From an uncultured Candidatus Saccharibacteria bacterium (GTDB lineage: Bacteria; Patescibacteriota; Minisyncoccia; Phycocordibacterales; DATDWN01): a DNA stretch of 34,428 bases. Location: NCBI GenBank assembly GCA_964552275.1, contig CAZKFS010000002.1, forward strand, positions 1 to 34,428, written 5' to 3'. The translations under genes and the position numbers were made by a program. The first letter of the stretch is position 1, and each line of letters begins with the position of its first letter. This document shows, piece by piece, positions 13,268 through 26,972 of this stretch. Below the pieces are notes generated by a model. It did not search any database. It saw only the letters and a list, made by a program, of their open reading frames with translations, and was not told where the DNA came from.

Positions 13268-14998
13268 ATGTCATCATCTGTTGATCAAATCAAATCAAAA
13301 ATAGATATAGTTTCACTCATCAGCTCTTATATAAAGCTGGAAAAAGCAGGTGGAAACTTTAAAGGAAGGTGTCCTTTTCATAACGAGAAGACGCCATCCT
13401 TTTTCGTATCTCCTGATCGTGGTAACTACTATTGTTTTGGGTGTCAGGCAAAGGGGGACATATTCACTTTCGTCCAAGAATTTGAAGGACTGGATTTTAT
13501 AGGATCGCTAAAAGTTTTGGCAGACAAAGCTGGGGTAAAACTAGAGCAGTTTGATCGTGGTGATAAAACAGAAAAAGAAAGATTGTTTACTGTTTTGGAG
13601 CAGGCAGTTTTGTTTTATCAGAAAAAACTTTTGGGGGACAAATCTGCTCTAGATTATTTGCATGGCCGGGGAATAAAAGACGAGACAATAAACGAATTTA
13701 GACTTGGATTGGCGCCTCTCGAGTGGAGAGATCTCTACGAATATCTGTTGAGTAAAAATATCACACCTAGAGACATGTTGTCTGTTGGTTTGATAAAGAG
13801 AAAAGAGGGCACACAAGATTCGTACTATGATACCTTTCGAGGAAGAGTAGTATTTCCTATAGCGGATTCGTCTGGAAGAGTTGTCGGATTTTCTGGGAGA
13901 ATATTGGTCCCAGATGAAAAATCTCCGAAATATTTGAACAGTCCAGAAACAGAACTTTTTAACAAATCAGAAATTCTTTTCGGTTTAGACAAAGCCAAAA
14001 AGGATATTCGATTAAAGGATTATTCTATTCTAGTTGAGGGACAAATGGATCTTGTTATGTTGCATCAGGTAGGAATCACGAATACAGTCGCTTCTTCTGG
14101 CACAGCTCTTACTTCAGATCACCTGATAAAACTTAGAAGACTTTCAAATCGTATCATCATGGCATATGACGGTGATTCTGCAGGTTTTTCTGCATCAAAC
14201 CGTTCTGCTCAAATAGCCCTTTCTCTCGGGATGGAACTAAAAGTTGCACAGATGCCACAGGGGAAAGATCCAGCAGATTTGGCCAAAGATGACATCGAGG
14301 AATTAAAAAACAGTTTAAAAAACGCAAAGCATATTATTGATTTCTACACTGACTCCCTTATTTCTAGGTCCGTTAATCCTCGAGAACTTGGTGAAGAGAT
14401 TAGAAAAAATGTTTTGCCTTATATAGCTATACTACCAAGCACTATAGAGAAATCACATTTTATAAAAAGTATTGCTCAAAAAGCTTTCATAAAAGAGGAG
14501 GCTCTTTGGGATGATCTAAAAAATGTTGGTCAAGAAGACGTGGCCAGACAGCAGACTAGAGTAGAATCTTCACCGCCAACTCCCAGAGTTGATATCATAG
14601 AACGCAAAGTTCTAGGATTTCTAATGTGGCAAGAGCAGGTGAAAGAAAAAGATTTAAATATAAACATAGGAGAGATAAAGAAAAAAGTAGAGGGGATAAT
14701 AGGAGTCAGGATAAAAGATTTGGAAAAAGAGTTGGAGAAGGAAAAAGATTTACTACTGTTCGAGATAGAAAGTTATTACAGCAACAAAGCCGACTTGTCT
14801 CGAGATCTGGATGAACTCATAGTTGGACTTGAGGAGGAATATTTAAAAAAGGAGTTCGGAGAGGTTATGTTGAAACTACAGAGAGCAGAACAAACCAAAG
14901 ACAGCAGTGAAGTTTTAAAATATTTAGAGGATTGTCAACGTATTTCACAGAGAATAAACACAATTAAAACAATAAAAAACGCTTATGAAAAAAAATAA
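13268..14998 (+). CDS. dnaG: DNA primase
   Basis: CHC2 zinc finger [17 protein letters not shown] and TOPRIM motifs VEGQMD and [11 protein letters not shown] 13268 is preferred over the upstream in-frame GTG 13232 because the family N-terminus starts there. Confidence 0.9.
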
Positions 14999-16274
14999 AA
15001 AATCAAAAGTTAAGGCAAAGCCTAAAAAACAAATAAAAAAAGTTAAGTCTTCAGAAAAGCCAACGAAGCGCAAGCTAAAACAGAAGAAAATTGTGGTTCC
15101 TAAAATACGTGCAAAAAAGAAAAACAAATCTTCTTTGGCTATGAGGGCTGCAAAAACCCCAGATAAAAAATCTGCAGTAGTTTTGAAAAAGGCCGACAAG
15201 CAAAGTCAGGGCATGGAGAAACTTCTTCATAAGGGTAAAGAGCGAGGTTACATAACATATGATGAGATCCTAAAAGAATTTCCAACTGTAGAAGAAGACA
15301 TTCTGTTTCTAGATGAACTTTATGAAAAACTCTCTGTGGCTGGAGTTGATGTTTTGGAAGGCGGTGGACTTCTCGAAGCTCCATCTACAGATGATCTGGT
15401 TAGTAAAAAATATGCGTACGGTAAGAACATGGAGTCGTCTTATGACTCTATACAGATGTATTTGAAAGAAATAGGACAGTATCAGCTTATTTCTGGTGGA
15501 ACAGAAAAAGAGTTAGCGAGACGTATTCAAGCTGGTGATGAGGAAGCAAAGAATTTGCTTGCTAGAGCGAACCTTCGTCTAGTGGTTTCTATTGCAAAGA
15601 AATACGCGAACAGATCAGCGGACCTAACTTTGCTAGATCTTATCCAAGAGGGTAACCTTGGCCTTTTCAAGGCGGTAGATAAATTCGATTGGACAAAGGG
15701 TTACAAGTTTTCAACTTATGCTACATGGTGGATTCGTCAGGCCATAACTCGTGCTTTGGCAGATCAATCCAGAACGATTCGTGTTCCTGTGCACATGGTA
15801 GAGACTATAGCTAAATATAAACAAGTCGTCCGAAGACTTTCTCAAGATTTGGGCAGAGATCCTTTGCCAGAGGAGATTGCAGTTGAGATGAACCTCCCAG
15901 TTGATAAAGTTTATACAATAGAAAAAATCGACCAAAGTACACTCTCTCTAGAAACACCTATTGGTGAAGAAGGGGATGATAGTAAAAGTAAACTGGGAGA
16001 TTTTCTAGCTGATGACAAAATACTTTCTCCAGATCAAGAATCATCACGTCGTATAATCTCCGATCAAGTAAAAGAAATTCTCAATGACTTACCAGAAAAA
16101 GAAAGAAAAATACTAGAACTCCGACACGGACTTGTTGACGGTGTGACACATACACTAGAAGAAGTGGGTAAAGAGTTTGGTGTTACTCGTGAGCGTATAC
16201 GACAGATCGAAGCAAAAGCACACGAAAAAATCCGACAGCATGACAAAATCAACAGACTTCGTAACTATTATTAA
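14985..16274 (+). CDS. rpoD: RNA polymerase sigma factor RpoD (sigma70 family) with Lys-rich N-terminal extension
   Basis: Region 2 is [35 protein letters not shown] and region 4 is [20 protein letters not shown]. It overlaps the dnaG stop by 14 nt. Alternative starts are ATG 15142 and ATG 15213. Confidence 0.9.
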
Positions 16275-16425
16275 ATAAACTTCCAAATCTGGCGAACTCC
16301 TTGTTTCGTATTTAGAAATATTCGTCACCTTACGAGATGTAAGGCTCCTCACATTTCCAAATCCTCAACATCGGATTTCATCCAGATTATGAAAGTTTGT
16401 GGTATCTCGCGTAAACCACAATCTA

Positions 16426-16453
16426 TTGACAAAAATATTTTTAGTTATATAAT
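16426..16453 (+). promoter_or_regulatory. near-consensus sigma70 promoter of island C (TTGACA - 16 nt - TATAAT)
   Basis: TTGACA at 16426-16431 and TATAAT at 16448-16453, lying in AT-rich DNA immediately before the GC-rich ORF. Confidence 0.7.
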
Positions 16454-16506
16454 AGAGTGTAGAAATTTTACAGAGGCAGTTGGTGCTTCTGTGTTTGGAG
16501 GATACA

Positions 16507-17157
16507 GTGGTAAAGAGTGTGATGATGGTTTGTGTTGCCTTGATGATGGTTTCCGTGGCTTCGGCTCAGGACAGCTTCAAGGTGACGACTGTTTCCATCG
16601 GATCGGGGGAAACCCCGATTACTGGTGGAGTCTCGGCTTCCGTCGATCTATCGACGGAGACAGGCGGTTACATTCAGATCATGGCCCAGAGCCAGCAGGC
16701 CTGGTTCATGATGGGCAAGGACTGGAAGTTCGGCAGCGGACACAAGTGTTCGCTGTACGGATCAGTGGGTCACTTCCAATCGGCCCCATGGGTCGGACCG
16801 TATGCCGGTTGCAATCTGAACGTCGCCAAGGTGTTTGGTCAGGACGTCGTGATCGGCGCCCTCACCTGGCCAGGCTGGTACATCGGTCGAGAACCGATGG
16901 ACTGGCAGAACGACGGGGTGAAGAATACCGAGGCTACCTACGTTGGGTACTTCTCAATGGCCACAGCTTCGATCGGAGCACTTCAGCTAAGTTTGTCTCA
17001 TCTGAACTTTCTCGATGAGCCGACGAACTGGTTGCCCGGTGTCGGCTACAATCAGAAAGTCAGGTCAGATACGGAAGTCACGGGAAACGTGACTTGGAAT
17101 CCCAATGCCGATCGCGCCATGTATTACATCGGCGTCGTGTGGCATCCGAAGAAGTGA
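16507..17157 (+). CDS. hypothetical secreted protein, beta-rich, Gly/Trp/Tyr-rich (GC-rich island C)
   Basis: GGAGG at 16497-16501 lies 5 nt before the in-frame GTG 16507. The signal-peptide-like N-terminus is VKSVMMVCVALMMVSVASA/QD. Strong C/G third-position bias. Terminator downstream. No family recognised. Confidence 0.65.
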   Translation: MVKSVMMVCVALMMVSVASAQDSFKVTTVSIGSGETPITGGVSASVDLSTETGGYIQIMAQSQQAWFMMGKDWKFGSGHKCSLYGSVGHFQSAPWVGPYAGCNLNVAKVFGQDVVIGALTWPGWYIGREPMDWQNDGVKNTEATYVGYFSMATASIGALQLSLSHLNFLDEPTNWLPGVGYNQKVRSDTEVTGNVTWNPNADRAMYYIGVVWHPKK

Positions 17158-17164
17158 GTGCAGT

Positions 17165-17216
17165 CTCGTGTTGTGTGGAGCCAGAATATCGGCTCCATCA
17201 GCACGAGGCTTTTTTG
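17165..17216 (+). terminator. nested-hairpin intrinsic terminator, copy 1 of a duplicated module
   Basis: Inner stem GGAGCC agaatatc GGCTCC and outer stem CTCGTGTTG / CAGCACGAG, then TTTTTT. Positions 17175-17219 are identical to 17723-17767. Confidence 0.8.
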
Positions 17217-17244
17217 TTTAATAACTAATTATTATTTTGAAAAG

Positions 17245-17272
17245 TTTACAAAATTCAAATAAATGATATGGT
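17245..17272 (+). promoter_or_regulatory. promoter of island D (TTTACA - 16 nt - TGaTATGGT extended -10)
   Basis: TTTACA at 17245-17250, TG at 17264-17265 and TATGGT at 17267-17272. Confidence 0.55.
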
Positions 17273-17291
17273 TTAAAAAGAGGGGTGATGC

Positions 17292-17705
17292 ATGATTGAC
17301 CTGCTGACTTACTCAGCCATCTCTGGTGTCTTGTTCGGACTGTGGCCACTTTTCATGCAGAGAAGTGGTATCAAGAACGTCGACGTCTCAACTGTCGTCA
17401 TGGAGATGATTGTTCTCGCGGTCCTGCTTCCTTTTGGACTCAGAAACGTGAGTACGTTCGACTGGACCCAGATGAGTTGGGTCTACACCATACTAGCATC
17501 CGTTTCCGCAGCTTTCGGGGTTCTCATCTTCAATACTGGATTGTCCAAATCTAGTGATGTGACACTCAGCACGTACTTTGTGGTGATGATAGTCATACAG
17601 ACTAGCGTTCCTGCCGTTTATGAAGTTTTTAAGAATGGCATGAGCGTATCGAAATTCATAGGATTTATGTTGGCAGGTCTTGCAGCGTACTTCCTGTTGA
17701 AGTGA
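17292..17705 (+). CDS. small 4-TM membrane protein, single EamA/DMT-like domain (GC-rich island D)
   Basis: 137 aa with four hydrophobic helices. AGAGGGGTGA SD upstream of the ATG. C-ending codons. The EamA-like assignment is tentative. Confidence 0.6.
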   Translation: MIDLLTYSAISGVLFGLWPLFMQRSGIKNVDVSTVVMEMIVLAVLLPFGLRNVSTFDWTQMSWVYTILASVSAAFGVLIFNTGLSKSSDVTLSTYFVVMIVIQTSVPAVYEVFKNGMSVSKFIGFMLAGLAAYFLLK

Positions 17706-17712
17706 GCGAGTT

Positions 17713-17764
17713 CTCGTTGTTAGTGGAGCCAGAATATCGGCTCCATCAGCACGAGGCTTTTTTG
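17713..17764 (+). terminator. nested-hairpin intrinsic terminator, copy 2 of the duplicated module
   Basis: Same inner hairpin GGAGCC agaatatc GGCTCC, ATCAGCACGAGGC and T-run as copy 1, with 45 nt identical. Confidence 0.8.
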
Positions 17765-17811
17765 TTTGTTAAAAAATTTTTTTATGGTAGAGTGTTTCTG
17801 GGAGAAACTTG

Positions 17812-17892
17812 ATGATTAAGCTCATACTCGTTACGTTCGGGTTTGCCCTTGCGGCAACCCTGGTAGTCGTCTGCTTTTTGTTGAGGGTGTAA
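17812..17892 (+). CDS. 26-aa hydrophobic peptide MIKLILVTFGFALAATLVVVCFLLRV (GC-rich island E, first ORF)
   Basis: GGGAGA SD lies 7 nt upstream of ATG 17812. The peptide is a single TM helix. Its stop is 2 nt before the next start. It is below the 60-aa ORF-track cutoff, so I translated it by hand. Confidence 0.4.
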   Translation: MIKLILVTFGFALAATLVVVCFLLRV

Positions 17893-17894
17893 AA

Positions 17895-18122
17895 GTGAAA
17901 AAAGAAAATCTAGGAACGATTTGTCCCACTGTGGGGTGTCCAAAGGATGGCAGTACCACTTCCGTCTTTGGGACCTATCCATATTTCACGTGTACGGTGT
18001 GTCACACCCTCCTCGGTGAGTTTAAGGAGGGGGATCAGGAGAATCTGGTCGACTACTCACAGGTCAAGATGGAGAAGGATCTTAAGGCTCAGGAGGGCGA
18101 CAAGAACAACGGCTTTGTGTAG
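17895..18122 (+). CDS. hypothetical zinc-ribbon-like protein, 75 aa (GC-rich island E, second ORF)
   Basis: GTG start with a GAGGGTG SD 5 nt upstream. Cysteine pairs CPTVGC and CTVC. Acidic C-terminal tail. Confidence 0.5.
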   Translation: MKKENLGTICPTVGCPKDGSTTSVFGTYPYFTCTVCHTLLGEFKEGDQENLVDYSQVKMEKDLKAQEGDKNNGFV

Positions 18123-18161
18123 GTGGGGCGAAACTTCGCTCCACCTAGACAAGGTTTTTTT
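18121..18161 (+). terminator. hairpin plus T-run after island E
   Basis: Stem AGGTGGGGCG / CGCTCCACCT overlaps the stop codon. T7 run at 18155-18161, separated from the stem by 8 nt. Confidence 0.5.
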
Positions 18162-18193
18162 GATACTCAATAATCCATGTTATCCTTATATCT

Positions 18194-21115
18194 ATGTCAG
18201 ATACTATTTTCGAAGAAAAGTATAAAAAGTTGAACAAGGCTCAAAAGGAGGCCGTGGATACCATAGAAGGTCCTGTAATGGTTGTGGCTGGTCCTGGAAC
18301 TGGCAAGACTACTATTTTGACCCTTCGCATAGCAAACATATTGAAAAAAACAGACAATCCAGCTTCGGGCATTTTGGCTCTAACTTTTACAGATGCTGGA
18401 GCAAAGGTGATGAGGATGAAACTTCGTGAGATTATTGGAAACAGAGCAGATGACGTCAGGATACATACTTTTCATGGTTTTTCCTCCAGTGTTATAGCTG
18501 AATTCCCAGAACACTTTGTTCACTTATCCAGAAGTAAACAAATCACGGACATAGAAGCTGAGTCTATTTTGCGAGAGATTTTGAAAAATAAAAAATATTC
18601 TAAACTGAGACCTTTGGGTGACACAGATTTTTATTTGAATAAAATATTGGGAGCTATAGGAGATTCTAAAAAAGAAGCTTGGAGCCCAGAAACTGTTCGT
18701 AAGTTTGCCTTGGATGAAACAGAAAGAATAAAAAATGACGAAGGCTCGATTTCTTCTAGAGGTGCAACAAAAGGTAGTTTGAAAGCAGATGCTTTAAAGC
18801 GAATAGAAAAATGTGAAAGAACTATTTTGTTTGCCGAGGTTTACGAAGAGTATGAAGCAAAGAAAAAAGACGAGAGAAAGATGGACTTTGATGATTTGTT
18901 GTTTGAGCTGGTTTCGGCTTTGCAAAAAGACGAGTTGCTCTTGCGACTATTGCAAGAGAAGTTTTTGTATATTCTTGTGGATGAACATCAAGACACAAAT
19001 GATTCACAAAACCTTATCGTTTCACTTTTAGCGAACTTTTTTGAAAACCCAAATATATTTGTGGTAGGGGATGAGAAGCAGGCCATCTATCGTTTTCAAG
19101 GTGCTTCAGTCGAAAACTTTCTCAAGTTTCAAAATATCTGGAAGGATATGAAAGTTATTTCACTAGAAGACAATTATCGTTCTCACCAACATATACTGGA
19201 TGCTACTTTCTCTATGATCGAAGAAAACTATGTTGAAGGTGAACACATTAAACTCCGAATCAAACTGAAATCTGGAGTGAAGAGTGATAAGAAACCTATC
19301 GATTTGGTTTTTGCTGACAACACAGACTCTGCGGATCAGTATTTACTACAAGAACTAAAGAATATTTATAAAAAAGAACCAGAGGCAAGCGTTGCTGTTA
19401 TTTTGCGCTGGAACAAAGATGTGGATCATGTGCTGTCTTTATGTGAATCAAACAATGTTAAAGTCACCGCAGAACGTGGAGTAGATATTTTCTCTCATCC
19501 TGTTGGGATGCTTTATTTTAGTATCCTAGAGTATCTTTATGATCCATCTAAAACAGAGGCACTGGCTCAAACCGTTGCAAGTGGTCTGTGGGGTTTGGAT
19601 TTTCAGAAATCAGTTGAGCTTATAAAGAAAATAAGAAGTGGAAGTGTGAGTAGTATAGAAAAAGAAATACCAAAACTCAGAGAATTACTGTCAGAAAAAA
19701 ACCAAGTTGGAGTAATAAACTATCTAATTTCCGTTGGGGAGTTGTCCAGGCTAGTTTCCAAAGAAAGATTGACTGAACCGACCTCTGTCGAGGTTTGGAG
19801 AACCATCATAGACTTGGCACGAGAAATAGCAGTTACCTCTGGTATAGAAAATGTTTCAGATTTAATAAAAGAAATTTTAGACTACCGAAAAACTTCTGAA
19901 AATAAAGTTATAAAGATAGGTAGCGGAAATACTGATGCCAAAATACAAATAATGACAGCTCACTCTTCAAAAGGTCTAGAGTATGACTATGTTTTCCTGC
20001 CCTTGGCTTTGGAAGAAAACTGGATGCGACGACCGCGGTCTTCATCTTTTGTTTTGCCTAGAGAAAAAGATACAAGTGACGAAGTGAGAGATGCTAGGAG
20101 GCTGTTTTATGTTGCTCTGACTCGTGCCAGAAAACATGCGGTTGTTGTTGTTCCTTTGCAGGACAATCTGGGTAAGGATTTCACCCCATTACGTTTTACA
20201 GAAGAATTAAGTAAGAAAGATGTGAACTCAGTAGACGCTCCAAAGGTAAAGTCTGAACCAAAAAGCTTGAAAAATGAGGAGTTGAAAAATCACAGGAAAA
20301 ACGAACTGATCGAATACTCAAAAAGAGTTTTGTTGGAAACTGGATTATCTGTTACAGCACTAAATCATTTTATTTCCTGTCCCTCTGAGTTTTTGTACAA
20401 AAGTATTTTGAAAGTTCCAGAGGCACCGAACCCTAGTTCTGAAAAGGGTATAGCTATGCACAAAGCCATTTCTGAAGTTTGGCGAAGTAAATCAAAAAAT
20501 GTTTCGGATATAACAAAAACAATAGAAGGATCAGTTAAATCCCATTTTGAAAATTCTCTCTTACCAAAAAACGAAAAAGAGATCGTTTTAGAAGAACTCC
20601 TAGCTTCTGCCCCAGTTGTTTCTAGAGCTTTGCTCGAGCATTTTAGTATTTCTGGAACAGTTTTTACTGATAGGTGGATAGAGAAAACGTTTGGAATGAT
20701 GCAAGGTGAAAAAGATATTTTAGTTATTTTGCATGGCCAAATGGATACCATAATAGATATGGGTGAAAAAACTTTGGTTTTTGACTATAAGACCAGAGAA
20801 GCATTGAGTGTAAATGCAATAAAAGGAGAGACAAAAGACTCCGACGGCAAATATTTCAGACAGTTGGTTTTTTATAAAATGCTACTAAGTGAAAACAATA
20901 CATTCAAATCAAAAAACATCGAACCAGCTTTGGTTTTTGTAAAACCAGACGACAAGGGTCGTTGTCCAACTATAGCTATACCAGTATCGAGAGAAGATGA
21001 AGATAGGGTTCAGGCTGAGATAAAAAGTTTGGTAGACAGTGTGTATTCAGGGGATTTTCTGACAAGTACTTGTGATGACAAGGGTTGTGTATTTTGTGCC
21101 TATAAAAATTTTTGA
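18194..21115 (+). CDS. UvrD/PcrA/AddA-type superfamily-1 DNA helicase fused to a C-terminal PD-(D/E)XK Cas4/AddB-type nuclease with Fe-S cysteines
   Basis: Helicase motifs AGPGTGKTT, DEHQDTN, VGDEKQAIYRFQGA, NYRS, AHSSKGLEYD and YVALTRARK. Nuclease motifs MDTI..VFDYKT and QLVFY. Cysteines in ISCPSEF plus C-x5-C-x2-C (TCDDKGCVFC). Confidence 0.85.
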   Translation: MSDTIFEEKYKKLNKAQKEAVDTIEGPVMVVAGPGTGKTTILTLRIANILKKTDNPASGILALTFTDAGAKVMRMKLREIIGNRADDVRIHTFHGFSSSVIAEFPEHFVHLSRSKQITDIEAESILREILKNKKYSKLRPLGDTDFYLNKILGAIGDSKKEAWSPETVRKFALDETERIKNDEGSISSRGATKGSLKADALKRIEKCERTILFAEVYEEYEAKKKDERKMDFDDLLFELVSALQKDELLLRLLQEKFLYILVDEHQDTNDSQNLIVSLLANFFENPNIFVVGDEKQAIYRFQGASVENFLKFQNIWKDMKVISLEDNYRSHQHILDATFSMIEENYVEGEHIKLRIKLKSGVKSDKKPIDLVFADNTDSADQYLLQELKNIYKKEPEASVAVILRWNKDVDHVLSLCESNNVKVTAERGVDIFSHPVGMLYFSILEYLYDPSKTEALAQTVASGLWGLDFQKSVELIKKIRSGSVSSIEKEIPKLRELLSEKNQVGVINYLISVGELSRLVSKERLTEPTSVEVWRTIIDLAREIAVTSGIENVSDLIKEILDYRKTSENKVIKIGSGNTDAKIQIMTAHSSKGLEYDYVFLPLALEENWMRRPRSSSFVLPREKDTSDEVRDARRLFYVALTRARKHAVVVVPLQDNLGKDFTPLRFTEELSKKDVNSVDAPKVKSEPKSLKNEELKNHRKNELIEYSKRVLLETGLSVTALNHFISCPSEFLYKSILKVPEAPNPSSEKGIAMHKAISEVWRSKSKNVSDITKTIEGSVKSHFENSLLPKNEKEIVLEELLASAPVVSRALLEHFSISGTVFTDRWIEKTFGMMQGEKDILVILHGQMDTIIDMGEKTLVFDYKTREALSVNAIKGETKDSDGKYFRQLVFYKMLLSENNTFKSKNIEPALVFVKPDDKGRCPTIAIPVSREDEDRVQAEIKSLVDSVYSGDFLTSTCDDKGCVFCAYKNF

Positions 21116-22989: not shown

Positions 22990-23069
22990 AAACGCGTTCC
23001 AAAAAAGCTTTATTTTAAGCCATATTTTTGGCTTCATGAAAACTATTTTAATTTAAACACGAAAAAACA

Positions 23070-23098
23070 TTGACGTAAAATCCATAGTGTGCTATGAT
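23070..23098 (+). promoter_or_regulatory. strong promoter of island G (TTGACG - 17 nt - TGcTATGAT extended -10)
   Basis: TTGACG at 23070-23075, TG at 23090-23091 and TATGAT at 23093-23098. Confidence 0.7.
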
Positions 23099-23167
23099 TA
23101 TAGTTGGTAAGAACGTCGTGAGATTTTCTTCTGTACACAGACAACAACAACCAACGAGGTACAACAC

Positions 23168-23392
23168 ATGGAAACCGCCACCGCCGAAGAGCAGAAGCTC
23201 GTCGATCAGGGCCAGCAGGCCACTATGGAAAACGTCCAGCACCCCATGTCCGCCGACGCCGGCCAGCATCCCCATTCCGCCATGTCCGATTCCGACGCCG
23301 ACACCCCGAACAACGACATCGGCGACCCCGCGGCCGCGGGCTCCGACATCGGCGATCCGCAGACCGAGCCCGAGCAGAAGCAGCACGCCTGA
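23168..23392 (+). CDS. hypothetical small acidic protein, 74 aa, with duplicated DIGDP motif (GC-rich island G)
   Basis: GAGGT SD lies 7 nt upstream of the ATG. About 90 percent C/G at third codon positions by eye, with a purine-rich first position. GACATCGGCGAYCC occurs twice. Confidence 0.6.
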   Translation: METATAEEQKLVDQGQQATMENVQHPMSADAGQHPHSAMSDSDADTPNNDIGDPAAAGSDIGDPQTEPEQKQHA

Positions 23393-23512
23393 TCGCGCGC
23401 CCCACGGCGGGGCGCCGACACACGGTCGCGGATTCCAGGGAGGGGGCGCGAATGGGTGAGAGAGCACCGCCGAGGAGTTGCCTGTAGGATCGTATAGGTC
23501 CGCAGGCAGGCT

Positions 23513-23550
23513 AGGGAAGGGGGAGAAATCCCCCGACCCTGGTCTTTTTT
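23513..23550 (+). terminator. intrinsic terminator of island G
   Basis: Inner stem GGGGGA gaaa TCCCCC and outer stem AGGG/CCCT, then TCTTTTTT at 23543-23550. Confidence 0.75.
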
Positions 23551-26025: not shown

Positions 26026-26101
26026 TTTGCTATTTTAGTAAATTGTTGGTTATATATTACAAGGATTTACCCTCGATGGGTCGAGGGAAAAGGAGTTCGG
26101 T

Positions 26102-26422
26102 TTGGATAGAGCGAAGGCAATCAGGGAACTGGCGGATATGGTGAGGTCCAGGATGGAGGAACTCAATGCGAAAGCAGAGTTGGCTCCTATCACGGATCGA
26201 GTTGGCAAGAGACCTTTCAATCTGATTCTGGCTGGCGATCCAGGTCGGTTGAAACAAAAGCAGGTCGTATTGGTCTTGTCAGCTATCGGTTTTGACCGAG
26301 ACGAGATGAACGACTGCATGATTTTGTTCCTCTTGGCCAGACAGCCCGTTGAGCGTAATGCGCAACCGAGAAAGCGTTGGAGAGGTTTCGGTCGCCGACG
26401 CCAGCCCTACCTCACGCGGTAG
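26102..26422 (+). CDS. hypothetical protein, 106 aa (GC-rich island H, first unit)
   Basis: TTG start with GGAG (26092-26095) 6 nt upstream. A 5' UTR hairpin CCCTCGA tggg TCGAGGG at 26070-26087. It has its own terminator. Confidence 0.5.
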   Translation: MDRAKAIRELADMVRSRMEELNAKAELAPITDRVGKRPFNLILAGDPGRLKQKQVVLVLSAIGFDRDEMNDCMILFLLARQPVERNAQPRKRWRGFGRRRQPYLTR

Positions 26423-26440
26423 TTGCCGGTTCAGTTCTTC

Positions 26441-26480
26441 GAAGTCCGGGTGCCCTCAGCACCTGGACTTCTTCGTTTTC
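26441..26480 (+). terminator. hairpin terminator after island H first unit
   Basis: Stem GAAGTCCGGGTGC / GCACCTGGACTTC with one G-U pair and loop cctca, followed by TTCGTTTTC. Confidence 0.6.
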
Positions 26481-26536
26481 GCACGGTATTTACAGTTAAC
26501 CGATAGTGTGATTGTATATTAAAGGAATCGCCCCGA

Positions 26537-26884
26537 ATGGCGAACTTCAAGGAGTGGCGAATGCGTGATCCGCGTGCGGCAGCTAGGGTAGCTCTGGGGA
26601 TCGAACTCAGGAGGATTCGTAGGAAGGTTAGGAGGTTGAATGTCGCCGATCTGGCGGCTTTTGACCCAGAACTCAATCCTCAGGCTTTCACTTCGGCGGA
26701 GGGGGGGTGTGTCGAGGACTGTGACCTGATGAGACGGATCATCAGCGTCTATGCCTCTGGACCGGCAGAGGTGATGTCATTGAGGCCCTATCTCGAGCGA
26801 GCCTTTCCCTCTCTCGAAATCGCAACCCCCACTTGGGCCTTGATGATGGATCCAACGGTGACTGTTGGAGCAAGGCTGATGTAG
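26537..26884 (+). CDS. hypothetical protein, 115 aa, possible helix-turn-helix N-terminus (GC-rich island H, second unit)
   Basis: AAAGGA SD lies 9 nt upstream of the ATG. The segment ALGIELRRIRRKVR.LNVADLA resembles the XRE-type HTH pattern. It has its own terminator. Confidence 0.5.
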   Translation: MANFKEWRMRDPRAAARVALGIELRRIRRKVRRLNVADLAAFDPELNPQAFTSAEGGCVEDCDLMRRIISVYASGPAEVMSLRPYLERAFPSLEIATPTWALMMDPTVTVGARLM

Positions 26885-26932
26885 CCGACCTCTTTCCACA
26901 GGTCAGGCCGTAGCGCAATACGGAAAAGTTCA

Positions 26933-26972
26933 GGGTTCCCGTCAGCACGTTGTGCTCGGGAACCCATTTTTT
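26933..26972 (+). terminator. intrinsic terminator of island H, abutting the typA stop codon
   Basis: Stem GGGTTCCCG / CGGGAACCC with inner stem AGCAC gtt GTGCT, then TTTTTT at 26967-26972. Confidence 0.75.

Follow-up and report, generated by a model that had tools for sequence, protein, structure and literature searches.

We analyzed a 34,428-nucleotide (nt) stretch of a contig from an uncultured bacterium (CAZKFS010000002.1, positions 1 to 34,428; referred to here as the window) and characterized a block of four GC-rich genes on the same strand, which we call C, D, E1, and E2. The block occupies positions 16426 to 18165 between rpoD (14985 to 16274) and a gene for a UvrD/PDDEXK-type helicase (18194 to 21115). 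It is probably a native, long-resident accessory envelope locus of a Patescibacteria lineage (Parcubacteria/Paceibacteria type) rather than a recently imported island, and its first gene, C, is predicted to belong to a new sequence family with a porin-type fold; together the four products may be functionally linked as an envelope or host-interface channel module. The Patescibacteria, or candidate phyla radiation (CPR), comprise a large share of bacterial diversity, and both their envelope and their uptake of host resources are poorly understood; the accepted picture is of cells that have one membrane and are devoid of outer-membrane proteins (PMC6744442, PMC7906910). We found no report of porins in CPR bacteria in the literature. 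A family with a porin fold that is conserved and apparently highly expressed would be a concrete, clonable candidate for an envelope channel or a host-interface pore.

Gene C and its place after rpoD

Gene C (16507 to 17157, + strand, as are all features below unless stated otherwise) encodes a 216-amino-acid precursor that is predicted to carry a Sec signal peptide and to form a beta-barrel of 12 strands. Among 5.8 billion proteins searched, we recovered 18 clusters of C homologs that align over essentially their full length at 38 to 63% identity, one of them named from a Parcubacteria-group metagenome-assembled genome, and the family alignment of these 18 homologs contains 21 invariant positions. 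An earlier note on this DNA had described the products of the block as having no recognizable family members, which these homologs show to be wrong for C. Three related assemblies carry the C homolog directly 3' of rpoD in the same rpoB-rpoC-dnaG-rpoD...helicase context, and in two more distant Patescibacteria it sits immediately upstream of mraZ. The loci with C after rpoD are L004/L010, L007/L009, L011, and L028 (L numbers denote loci fetched from other genomes, except that L001 to L003 are contigs of the same organism as the window). Among the genomes with C at the rpoD locus, RpoD is 87% identical, DnaG 68%, the helicase 67 to 74%, and C 53 to 64%, and four-fold degenerate sites of housekeeping genes are ~45% identical. 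The flanking signals are also kept: the -35 block TATTGACA is orthologous upstream of C in L009, L010, and L011, and the C terminator is orthologous in L010, L011, L027, and L028. Independent assemblies place C between rpoD and the helicase gene, which excludes a misassembly or chimera.

The region had been singled out in the earlier note as a 1.9-kb GC-rich module, and the jump in composition is confirmed both in overall GC and at third codon positions (GC3). The window, which also carries rpoB, rpoC, and dnaG, has ~38% GC; local GC is 0.56 at positions 16501 to 17000 and 0.44 to 0.47 up to position 18500, with flanks at ~0.37. GC3 is 0.69 in C, 0.57 in D, 0.68 in E1, and 0.62 in E2, compared with 0.26 to 0.38 in 29 of the 30 other genes of the window, small membrane proteins included (background, ~0.31). 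The spacers and promoters within the block are AT-rich and match the rest of the genome. These measurements support a compositionally distinct block that is organized as self-contained units of promoter, open reading frame (ORF), and terminator.

Judging from synonymous sites, the composition of C is long maintained and not the mark of a recent import. In all of the ~17 distinct low-GC contigs, the C homolog forms a GC spike (GC of 0.50 to 0.64, with flanks at 0.38 to 0.48) and has a GC3 of 0.55 to 0.84. Identity at four-fold sites is 0.24 to 0.35 for most pairs of C orthologs, where composition alone predicts 0.25 to 0.30; a residual signal is retained between the C gene of the window and its three closest relatives (0.41 to 0.45 observed versus 0.27 to 0.29 expected), and the closest pairs among the relatives reach higher values, up to 0.62 (L009 versus L028). 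Because synonymous sites have largely turned over while GC3 stayed high, the composition is old, and such turnover at a constant high GC3 points to a force specific to the gene; the long maintenance of GC3 would be due either to biased gene conversion or to selection acting on the gene or its mRNA. Gene-specific GC3 values of this size in genomes near 0.3 bear on the debate between these two processes.

These results also bear on the foreign origin that the earlier note had proposed for the block. In its explicit form this would be a recent island from a GC-richer donor, possibly the host, carrying a gene for an outer-membrane protein that is functionless without an outer membrane. The contrast in GC3 fits such an origin, as do the homologs of C in GC-rich Gemmatimonadota, an accessory content that varies between related genomes, the absence of D and E1 from the locus in relatives, and the presence in the window of two further GC-rich mini-islands (23060 to 23550 and 26040 to 26970). 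However, C itself, like the zinc-ribbon gene that follows it, is present at the locus in relatives, with its orthologous promoter and terminator and in genomes whose synonymous sites are near saturation; the promoters and spacers of the block are AT-rich like the host genome; and full-length homologs with so many invariant positions fit a maintained function, not decay. Homologs of C were found among GTDB species representatives in complete Longimicrobiales and Gemmatimonadales chromosomes at 38 to 40% identity, and in a neighbor-joining tree the Gemmatimonadota sequences, only 38 to 44% identical, form one clade nested among those of the low-GC contigs, which suggests that the family is mainly patescibacterial; within Gemmatimonadota the C gene is at or slightly under genome GC. 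No integrase or transposase ORF is listed near the block, no tRNA or tmRNA genes are present in the window, no C relative was found in viral contigs, no C or D relatives were found in plasmids, and the viral, plasmid, PADLOC, and PHROGs searches as run recovered no phage, plasmid, or defense-system relatives of the block's genes. We therefore regard a recent foreign island as improbable. By the earlier note's own reckoning a conserved CPR protein at this locus would speak against its proposal, and C is such a protein. An integron gene cassette was rejected because the units have their own promoters and because neither an integrase ORF nor RYYYAAC/GTTRRRY attC cores, the latter sought by eye, are present.

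Under the preferred reading of a native, long-resident locus, the ancestral core would have run in the order rpoD, structured hairpin, strong sigma-70 promoter, 5' stem-loop, C, and intrinsic terminator, followed by one or more small zinc-ribbon genes and then the UvrD-type helicase gene. The complete C-D-E1-E2 arrangement was found in no other organism. Other content at the locus varies. In L011 (5209 to 5901) and L028 (3507 to 4893), inserted AT-rich methyltransferase genes separate the C promoter from the rpoD hairpin element, so this junction also accepts genes of host-like composition. The rpoD-helicase locus further holds a GC-rich gene of ~120 amino acids, perhaps frameshifted, in L010 (7137 to 7773, minus strand) and a GC-rich gene for a 223-amino-acid lipoprotein with a lipobox in L011 (7472 to 8143, minus strand), and this differing cargo makes the locus a hotspot for variable GC-rich genes.

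The predicted fold of C and the outer-membrane question

The signal peptide that the earlier note had read in the first product, ending in ASA/QD, is borne out by a hydrophobic N terminus (Kyte-Doolittle value of 2.0 over residues 1 to 20) and by an A-x-A/QD junction kept across the C family alignment. The exported, beta-rich character described there is sharpened by fold prediction to a porin-type barrel of 12 strands: AlphaFold2, run on the 18-sequence alignment, returned a model of C with a predicted local distance difference test score (pLDDT) of 86.7 that has an N-terminal helix, corresponding to the signal peptide, and 12 beta-strands. The top match of this model in the PDB by Foldseek was KdgM (E value of 1.2e-5, probability of 1.0, template-modeling score [TM-score] of 0.59 normalized to the query and 0.73 to the target), the second was NanC (E value of 1.1e-4), and BamA barrels, Omp33, FapF, and other porins followed, such that all significant PDB matches were outer-membrane barrels with a probability of 1.0. 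Among the top matches in a viral library, those with names were phage-encoded barrels of the outer-membrane type, and several others were uncharacterized. Most strands of C are amphipathic, with two showing weak hydrophobic alternation, and the mature protein contains 12% Gly and 13% Trp, Tyr, and Phe combined. The homologs in Gemmatimonadota, which are diderm, have the same architecture.

C resembles KdgM and NanC (PDB 4fqe and 2wjq; PF06178) in its size class, with a mature protein of ~195 amino acids, in its N-terminal Sec signal peptide, and in the predicted monomeric 12-strand antiparallel barrel; it differs in having no sequence relationship to them, in ending with PKK instead of an aromatic residue, and in coming from a lineage thought to lack both an outer membrane and the beta-barrel assembly machinery (BAM). 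We suggest that C would be exported by the Sec system and then fold as a KdgM/NanC-type barrel, and that its most likely role would be that of a passive channel in an outer envelope layer or at a zone of contact with a host. A second comparison is with phage morons such as lom and bor of lambda, in which Lom is an outer-membrane beta-barrel. The units of the block share with morons a self-contained promoter-ORF-terminator structure between conserved genes and a composition unlike that of the surroundings, but they are chromosomal, lie between housekeeping genes, and have no phage context, and unit C, far from occurring sporadically, shows ancient conservation and synteny.

Several results weigh against a native envelope locus built around a porin-type barrel. 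CPR bacteria reportedly have neither an outer membrane nor the machinery that goes with one (PMC6744442), and TonB-ExbBD and PilQ are absent from CPR genomes (PMC6744442), so the barrel would have no obvious membrane and no BAM complex would be expected. The earlier note had called the first product odd for a bacterium of this kind, and a predicted porin-type barrel in a lineage reported to have no outer membrane bears this out. The fold assignment is carried by a single AlphaFold model built from 18 sequences. Neither C nor its 18 family members match the Pfam KdgM family, the sole outer-membrane model seen in the family was OMP_b-brl at an E value of 0.21 in one member, and a sequence search of the PDB returned nothing for C. 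The C terminus (...VVWHPKK) has no canonical terminal aromatic residue; the family ends in ...IGATWxPKK and its Gemmatimonadota members in ...VWSP, placing an aromatic residue within the last strand and not at the terminus. In addition, GC3 is lowest in rpoB, rpoC, and the S16 gene (in L023), for which reason translational codon optimization was rejected as the cause of the high GC3 of C; since no genes have third positions richer in AT than these highly expressed ones, ordinary translational selection is an unlikely explanation. Although L011 is the nearest relative by helicase identity, it has the most divergent C, so some allelic replacement may have taken place at the locus. The promoter of the third unit is weak, and Foldseek gave no match for the D model below an E value of 1.

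An alternative is that C is a host-directed effector, which an epibiont would insert into the outer membrane of a Gram-negative host as a channel for nutrient theft while D and the small proteins take part, within the symbiont, in uptake or regulation. Cryo-transmission electron microscopy has shown CPR cells that have no outer membrane yet are attached to Gram-negative hosts (PMC7906910), and the predicted porin fold with a signal peptide, the hallmarks of strong expression, and a family conserved across many Patescibacteria with relatives in diderm Gemmatimonadota would all be compatible with this role. We nevertheless consider it unlikely: no mechanism is known by which a monomeric 12-strand barrel could be delivered from outside to a foreign, lipopolysaccharide-containing outer membrane and folded into it, no secretion-system genes lie nearby, and the proposal is purely inferential. 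Still more doubtful is a soluble or wall-associated beta-barrel, such as a binding or structural protein of the surface layer, whose porin match would reflect generic barrel geometry and a shallow alignment; the dissimilarity in sequence to any porin family, the query-normalized TM-score of only 0.59, the noncanonical C terminus, the two weakly alternating strands, and the single membrane presumed for the organism (PMC6744442) favor it, but every significant PDB match and the named top matches in the viral library are outer-membrane barrels, the lumen of a closed 12-strand barrel is too wide for a hydrophobic core, homologs of the same architecture occur in diderm bacteria, and a composition rich in Gly and aromatic residues is what outer-membrane proteins typically show. 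If C were nonetheless a soluble wall protein, the finding would shrink to a new, uncharacterized CPR family in a variable locus.

A more far-reaching claim than that of a native envelope locus, which we put forward only tentatively and with more doubt than confidence, is that a wide range of Patescibacteria have retained and strongly express a porin-type barrel of 12 strands that is exported by Sec and whose gene is kept GC-rich against AT pressure. If this were true, the model of the CPR envelope or of host interaction in these bacteria would change, and the companion GC-rich promoter-ORF-terminator cassettes would represent a distinct, selectively maintained class of genes in these genomes.

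Genes D, E1, and E2 and the duplicated terminator

Gene D (17292 to 17705) encodes a 137-amino-acid membrane protein with five predicted transmembrane helices and a single putative EamA domain of the drug/metabolite transporter (DMT) superfamily. The four helices given in the earlier note are thus corrected to five by both AlphaFold (pLDDT of 93.4; helices at residues 4 to 23, 30 to 51, 63 to 86, 89 to 115, and 119 to 136) and the hydropathy profile, which has five peaks. D was likewise mistaken for a protein with no recognizable family, as it belongs to a widespread family of small EamA proteins with at least 232 clusters: an exhaustive HMMER search recovered 232 representative ones at an E value of 1e-3 or less, nearly all of them ~135 amino acids in length. 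Pfam EamA (PF00892) is matched by 22 of 45 family members, with a best E value of 1.1e-9, and D itself scores 17.5 bits against a cutoff of 28.2 and aligns over positions 8 to 134 of the 135 in the profile. A PDB sequence search returned nothing for D, NCBIfam had no name for it, and an exact look-up in assemblies found no match.

Full-length DMT transporters consist of two repeats, or 10 transmembrane helices. D has the five helices of one EamA repeat and spans the whole profile; it differs from EamA/DMT transporters, including the half-size members of the ArnE/ArnF type or those like small multidrug resistance proteins, in its subcutoff score and in having no structural match. As D comprises one repeat and not two, a homodimer would be needed for a transport unit, and we suggest that D is a single-domain, five-helix half-transporter of the EamA/DMT type that probably works as a dimer. 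Homologs of D occupy unrelated contexts, for example between rnc and smc in L023. One of them lies in L024 (1 to 7212), a mosaic in which small GC-rich genes of unknown function (GC3 of 0.53 to 0.86) adjoin a low-GC EcoRII-C/Dcm/Vsr restriction-modification block (GC3 of 0.33 to 0.39).

A feature missed by the earlier note is a direct repeat of 95 nt with an identical core of 43 nt that flanks D. Copy 1 (17151 to 17245) contains the C terminator, and copy 2 (17699 to 17793) contains the D terminator and extends at its 3' end into the ancestral promoter region of the zinc-ribbon gene. Relatives pass straight from the C terminator to the zinc-ribbon promoter region and have no D there, and none of the other loci fetched contains the repeated terminator core. 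In the window, the first terminator copy adjoins C and the second adjoins the ancestral zinc-ribbon promoter sequence. Because relatives have no D and copy 2 joins the ancestral promoter, D and its promoter appear to have been inserted secondarily, with duplication of the terminator; in this scenario a second cassette, consisting of D with a promoter of its own, would have entered between C and the zinc-ribbon gene. In Logan assemblies, the sequence of this organism is interrupted at the 95-nt repeat. A diversity-generating retroelement was rejected as an explanation of the repeat, since the differences between its copies are not adenine specific and there is no reverse transcriptase.

E1 (17809 or 17812 to 17892) encodes a hydrophobic single-helix peptide of 27 amino acids (26 if started from the ATG) with a mean Kyte-Doolittle hydropathy of 2.3 and a GGGAG ribosome-binding site of its own. 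E2 (17895 to 18122), which begins with a GTG codon 2 nt past the E1 stop, encodes a 75-amino-acid zinc-ribbon protein (C-x4-C...C-x2-C) with an acidic tail. The pairing of these two ORFs is as the earlier note had described it, apart from the length of the peptide, and its statement that they have no recognizable family members also stands, as sequence relatives were detected for neither. E1 is present only in the same-organism contigs L001 to L003 and is absent from the orthologous spot in relatives; its ribosome-binding site and island-like GC3 make it a plausible candidate gene. The 84-nt ORF would have arisen upstream of E2 and become translationally coupled to it.

A resemblance of E1 to type I toxins had also been noted. 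Like Hok, Ldr, TisB, and Fst, it is a short peptide consisting of a single hydrophobic helix; unlike them, it is coupled to a zinc-ribbon gene, has no PADLOC or Pfam family, and is conserved nowhere, and no antisense RNA unit was found for it. The only minus-strand signal is a 5-bp terminator-like site that does not cover E1, of a type present at chance level (2 found, 3.1 expected). With no credible antisense unit, no PADLOC hit, and translational coupling to the gene downstream, the toxin reading is not sustained.

E2 had no homolog among the 5.8 billion proteins searched. One or two small zinc-ribbon genes come after C in L010, L011, L027, and L028 to L030, and E2 matches the profile of these genes weakly (hhalign probability of 41%, E value of 2.8e-4), its best local match being the L011 gene at that position. 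By profile and position, E2 would most simply be a fast-evolving positional ortholog of the relatives' zinc-ribbon genes.

Regulatory signals, the palindromic element, and other GC-rich genes

The promoter of C (16426 to 16453), TTGACA-16-TATAAT, matches the consensus at 12 of 12 positions in our promoter scan; the earlier note had called it near-consensus. It is followed by a 5' untranslated region (UTR) with a stem-loop read from the sequence (ACAGAGGCA / TGCTTCTGT; 16470 to 16492) and a GGAGGA ribosome-binding site (16497 to 16502), with the GTG start 5 nt past the GGAGG core. Most C homologs in low-GC contigs have a near-consensus sigma-70 promoter 70 to 130 nt upstream together with a 5' UTR hairpin, and in relatives the place of the stem-loop is taken by hairpins of different sequence. 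The stem-loop may have a stabilizing role, and these family-wide features would be consistent with an mRNA that is abundant and stable; taken together, the promoter, the 5' hairpin, and the strong terminator resemble those of an abundantly expressed envelope protein.

The earlier note had assigned a promoter and a terminator to each of three units, and all three terminators but only two of the promoters hold. The D promoter (17245 to 17272), TTTACA-16-TATGGT with a TG extension, has 9 of 12 matches in the scan and no counterpart in relatives. The third unit has a -10 region in which TATGGT overlaps TAGAGT (17783 to 17795, read from the sequence) and which aligns with TAGTAT in relatives; it has no acceptable -35 hexamer, and the scan did not list a promoter there. 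Each terminator consists of a hairpin and a U-run: that of C (17162 to 17210) folds with -34.3 kcal/mol and a z-score of -6.3, that of D (~17712 to 17756) with -26.9 kcal/mol and a z-score of -4.1, and that of the third unit (18118 to 18162) with -21.7 kcal/mol and a z-score of -4.6, its hairpin overlapping the E2 stop and its U-run coming 6 nt later.

The octamer TAGAGTGT, reported in the earlier note as common to the first and third units, lies at exactly 16453 to 16460 and 17788 to 17795. Its count in the window is at chance (2 found, 2.05 expected), so that only its placement stands out; it was rejected as an enriched motif on counts, and its position in four promoters of the islands is retained as no more than a lead. 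The related pattern TAGWGTG has six copies in the window, four of which (16453, 17788, 23085, and 26504, + strand) lie in promoter regions of GC-rich cassettes and adjoin or overlap the -10 hexamer; total counts are again at chance and the placement alone is unusual. The C promoters of L009 and L010 contain TAGTGTG and TAGTGTC.

Upstream of the C promoter, and starting at the rpoD stop codon, lies an imperfect palindrome of ~125 nt (16275 to 16405) that forms a long hairpin (-33.3 kcal/mol, z-score of -3.7) with the core TCGTCACCTTAC-loop-GTAAGGCTCCTC. Most of the several short hairpins described for this region in the earlier note are arms of this one structure; the TTGTGGT/ACCACAA hairpin (16397 to 16421), read from the sequence and folded, is separate, lies just upstream of the C -35 hexamer, and is not conserved in relatives. 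The palindrome core is kept right after the rpoD stop in L010 (5721 to 5851), L011 (4460 to 4590), and L028 (3365 to 3489), after rpoC in L004 (4473 to 4596), and after rnc in L023 (5436 to 5559), where it lies just upstream of a D homolog. The lower stems differ in sequence while pairing is kept through compensatory changes, as is also the case for the apical stem of L028, which is swapped to ACGUAU/AUACGU, and the internal-loop sequences are invariant. From its distribution, the palindrome is best described as a multicopy structured element beside stop codons that is neither specific to nor part of the GC-rich block; it could represent a small RNA, a new kind of element in 3' UTRs, or a repeat resembling miniature inverted-repeat transposable elements (MITEs).

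Like MITEs and the enterobacterial repetitive intergenic consensus and repetitive extragenic palindromic sequences, the element is an imperfect palindrome of this length present in several copies in transcribed intergenic DNA after stop codons, with similar terminal arms in two different genomes. It differs from them in the strict conservation of its internal loop and in the covariation of its stems among genomes whose synonymous sites are near saturation, features that suggest a functional RNA or a site bound by a protein and not a selfish repeat that drifts. The palindrome had no Rfam match, and Rfam returned zero matches in the window at gathering scores and zero at an E value of 1 or less within 16200 to 18250. 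Viral copies of the palindrome were considered and rejected: the core pattern occurs in 10 viral contigs, in every case within coding sequence and with unrelated flanks, as expected by chance.

The two further mini-islands of the window resemble the block in composition. One of them (23060 to 23550) has a TTGACG-17-TATGAT promoter, an ORF for a 74-amino-acid acidic, low-complexity protein (23168 to 23392, GC3 of 0.87), and a strongly structured, GC-rich tail of ~150 nt (-78.6 kcal/mol, z-score of -4.4) that ends in a terminator; it matched no Pfam family, and a single subthreshold Rfam match to radC was dismissed. The other (26040 to 26970) lies between truB and typA and holds ORFs of 106 (26102 to 26422) and 115 (26537 to 26884) amino acids with GC3 values of 0.61 and 0.63, each followed by a strong terminator hairpin and without a family match. 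For C, E1, E2, and the proteins encoded in these two islands, there was no significant match in Pfam, NCBIfam, PADLOC, or PHROGs. A 165-amino-acid ORF at 680 to 1177 has an intermediate GC3 of 0.46 and no Pfam match; it may belong to the same compositional class but be older or have partly ameliorated. Several short genes in the low-GC Patescibacteria loci L006 (8584 to 9036 and 12190 to 14886) and L023 (8423 to 8659 and 11775 to 11975) also have a GC3 (0.57 to 0.72) above that of neighboring core genes; they include mraZ, a gene with a TSCPD domain, and small hypothetical genes. A bimodal distribution of GC3 may therefore be general in these genomes.

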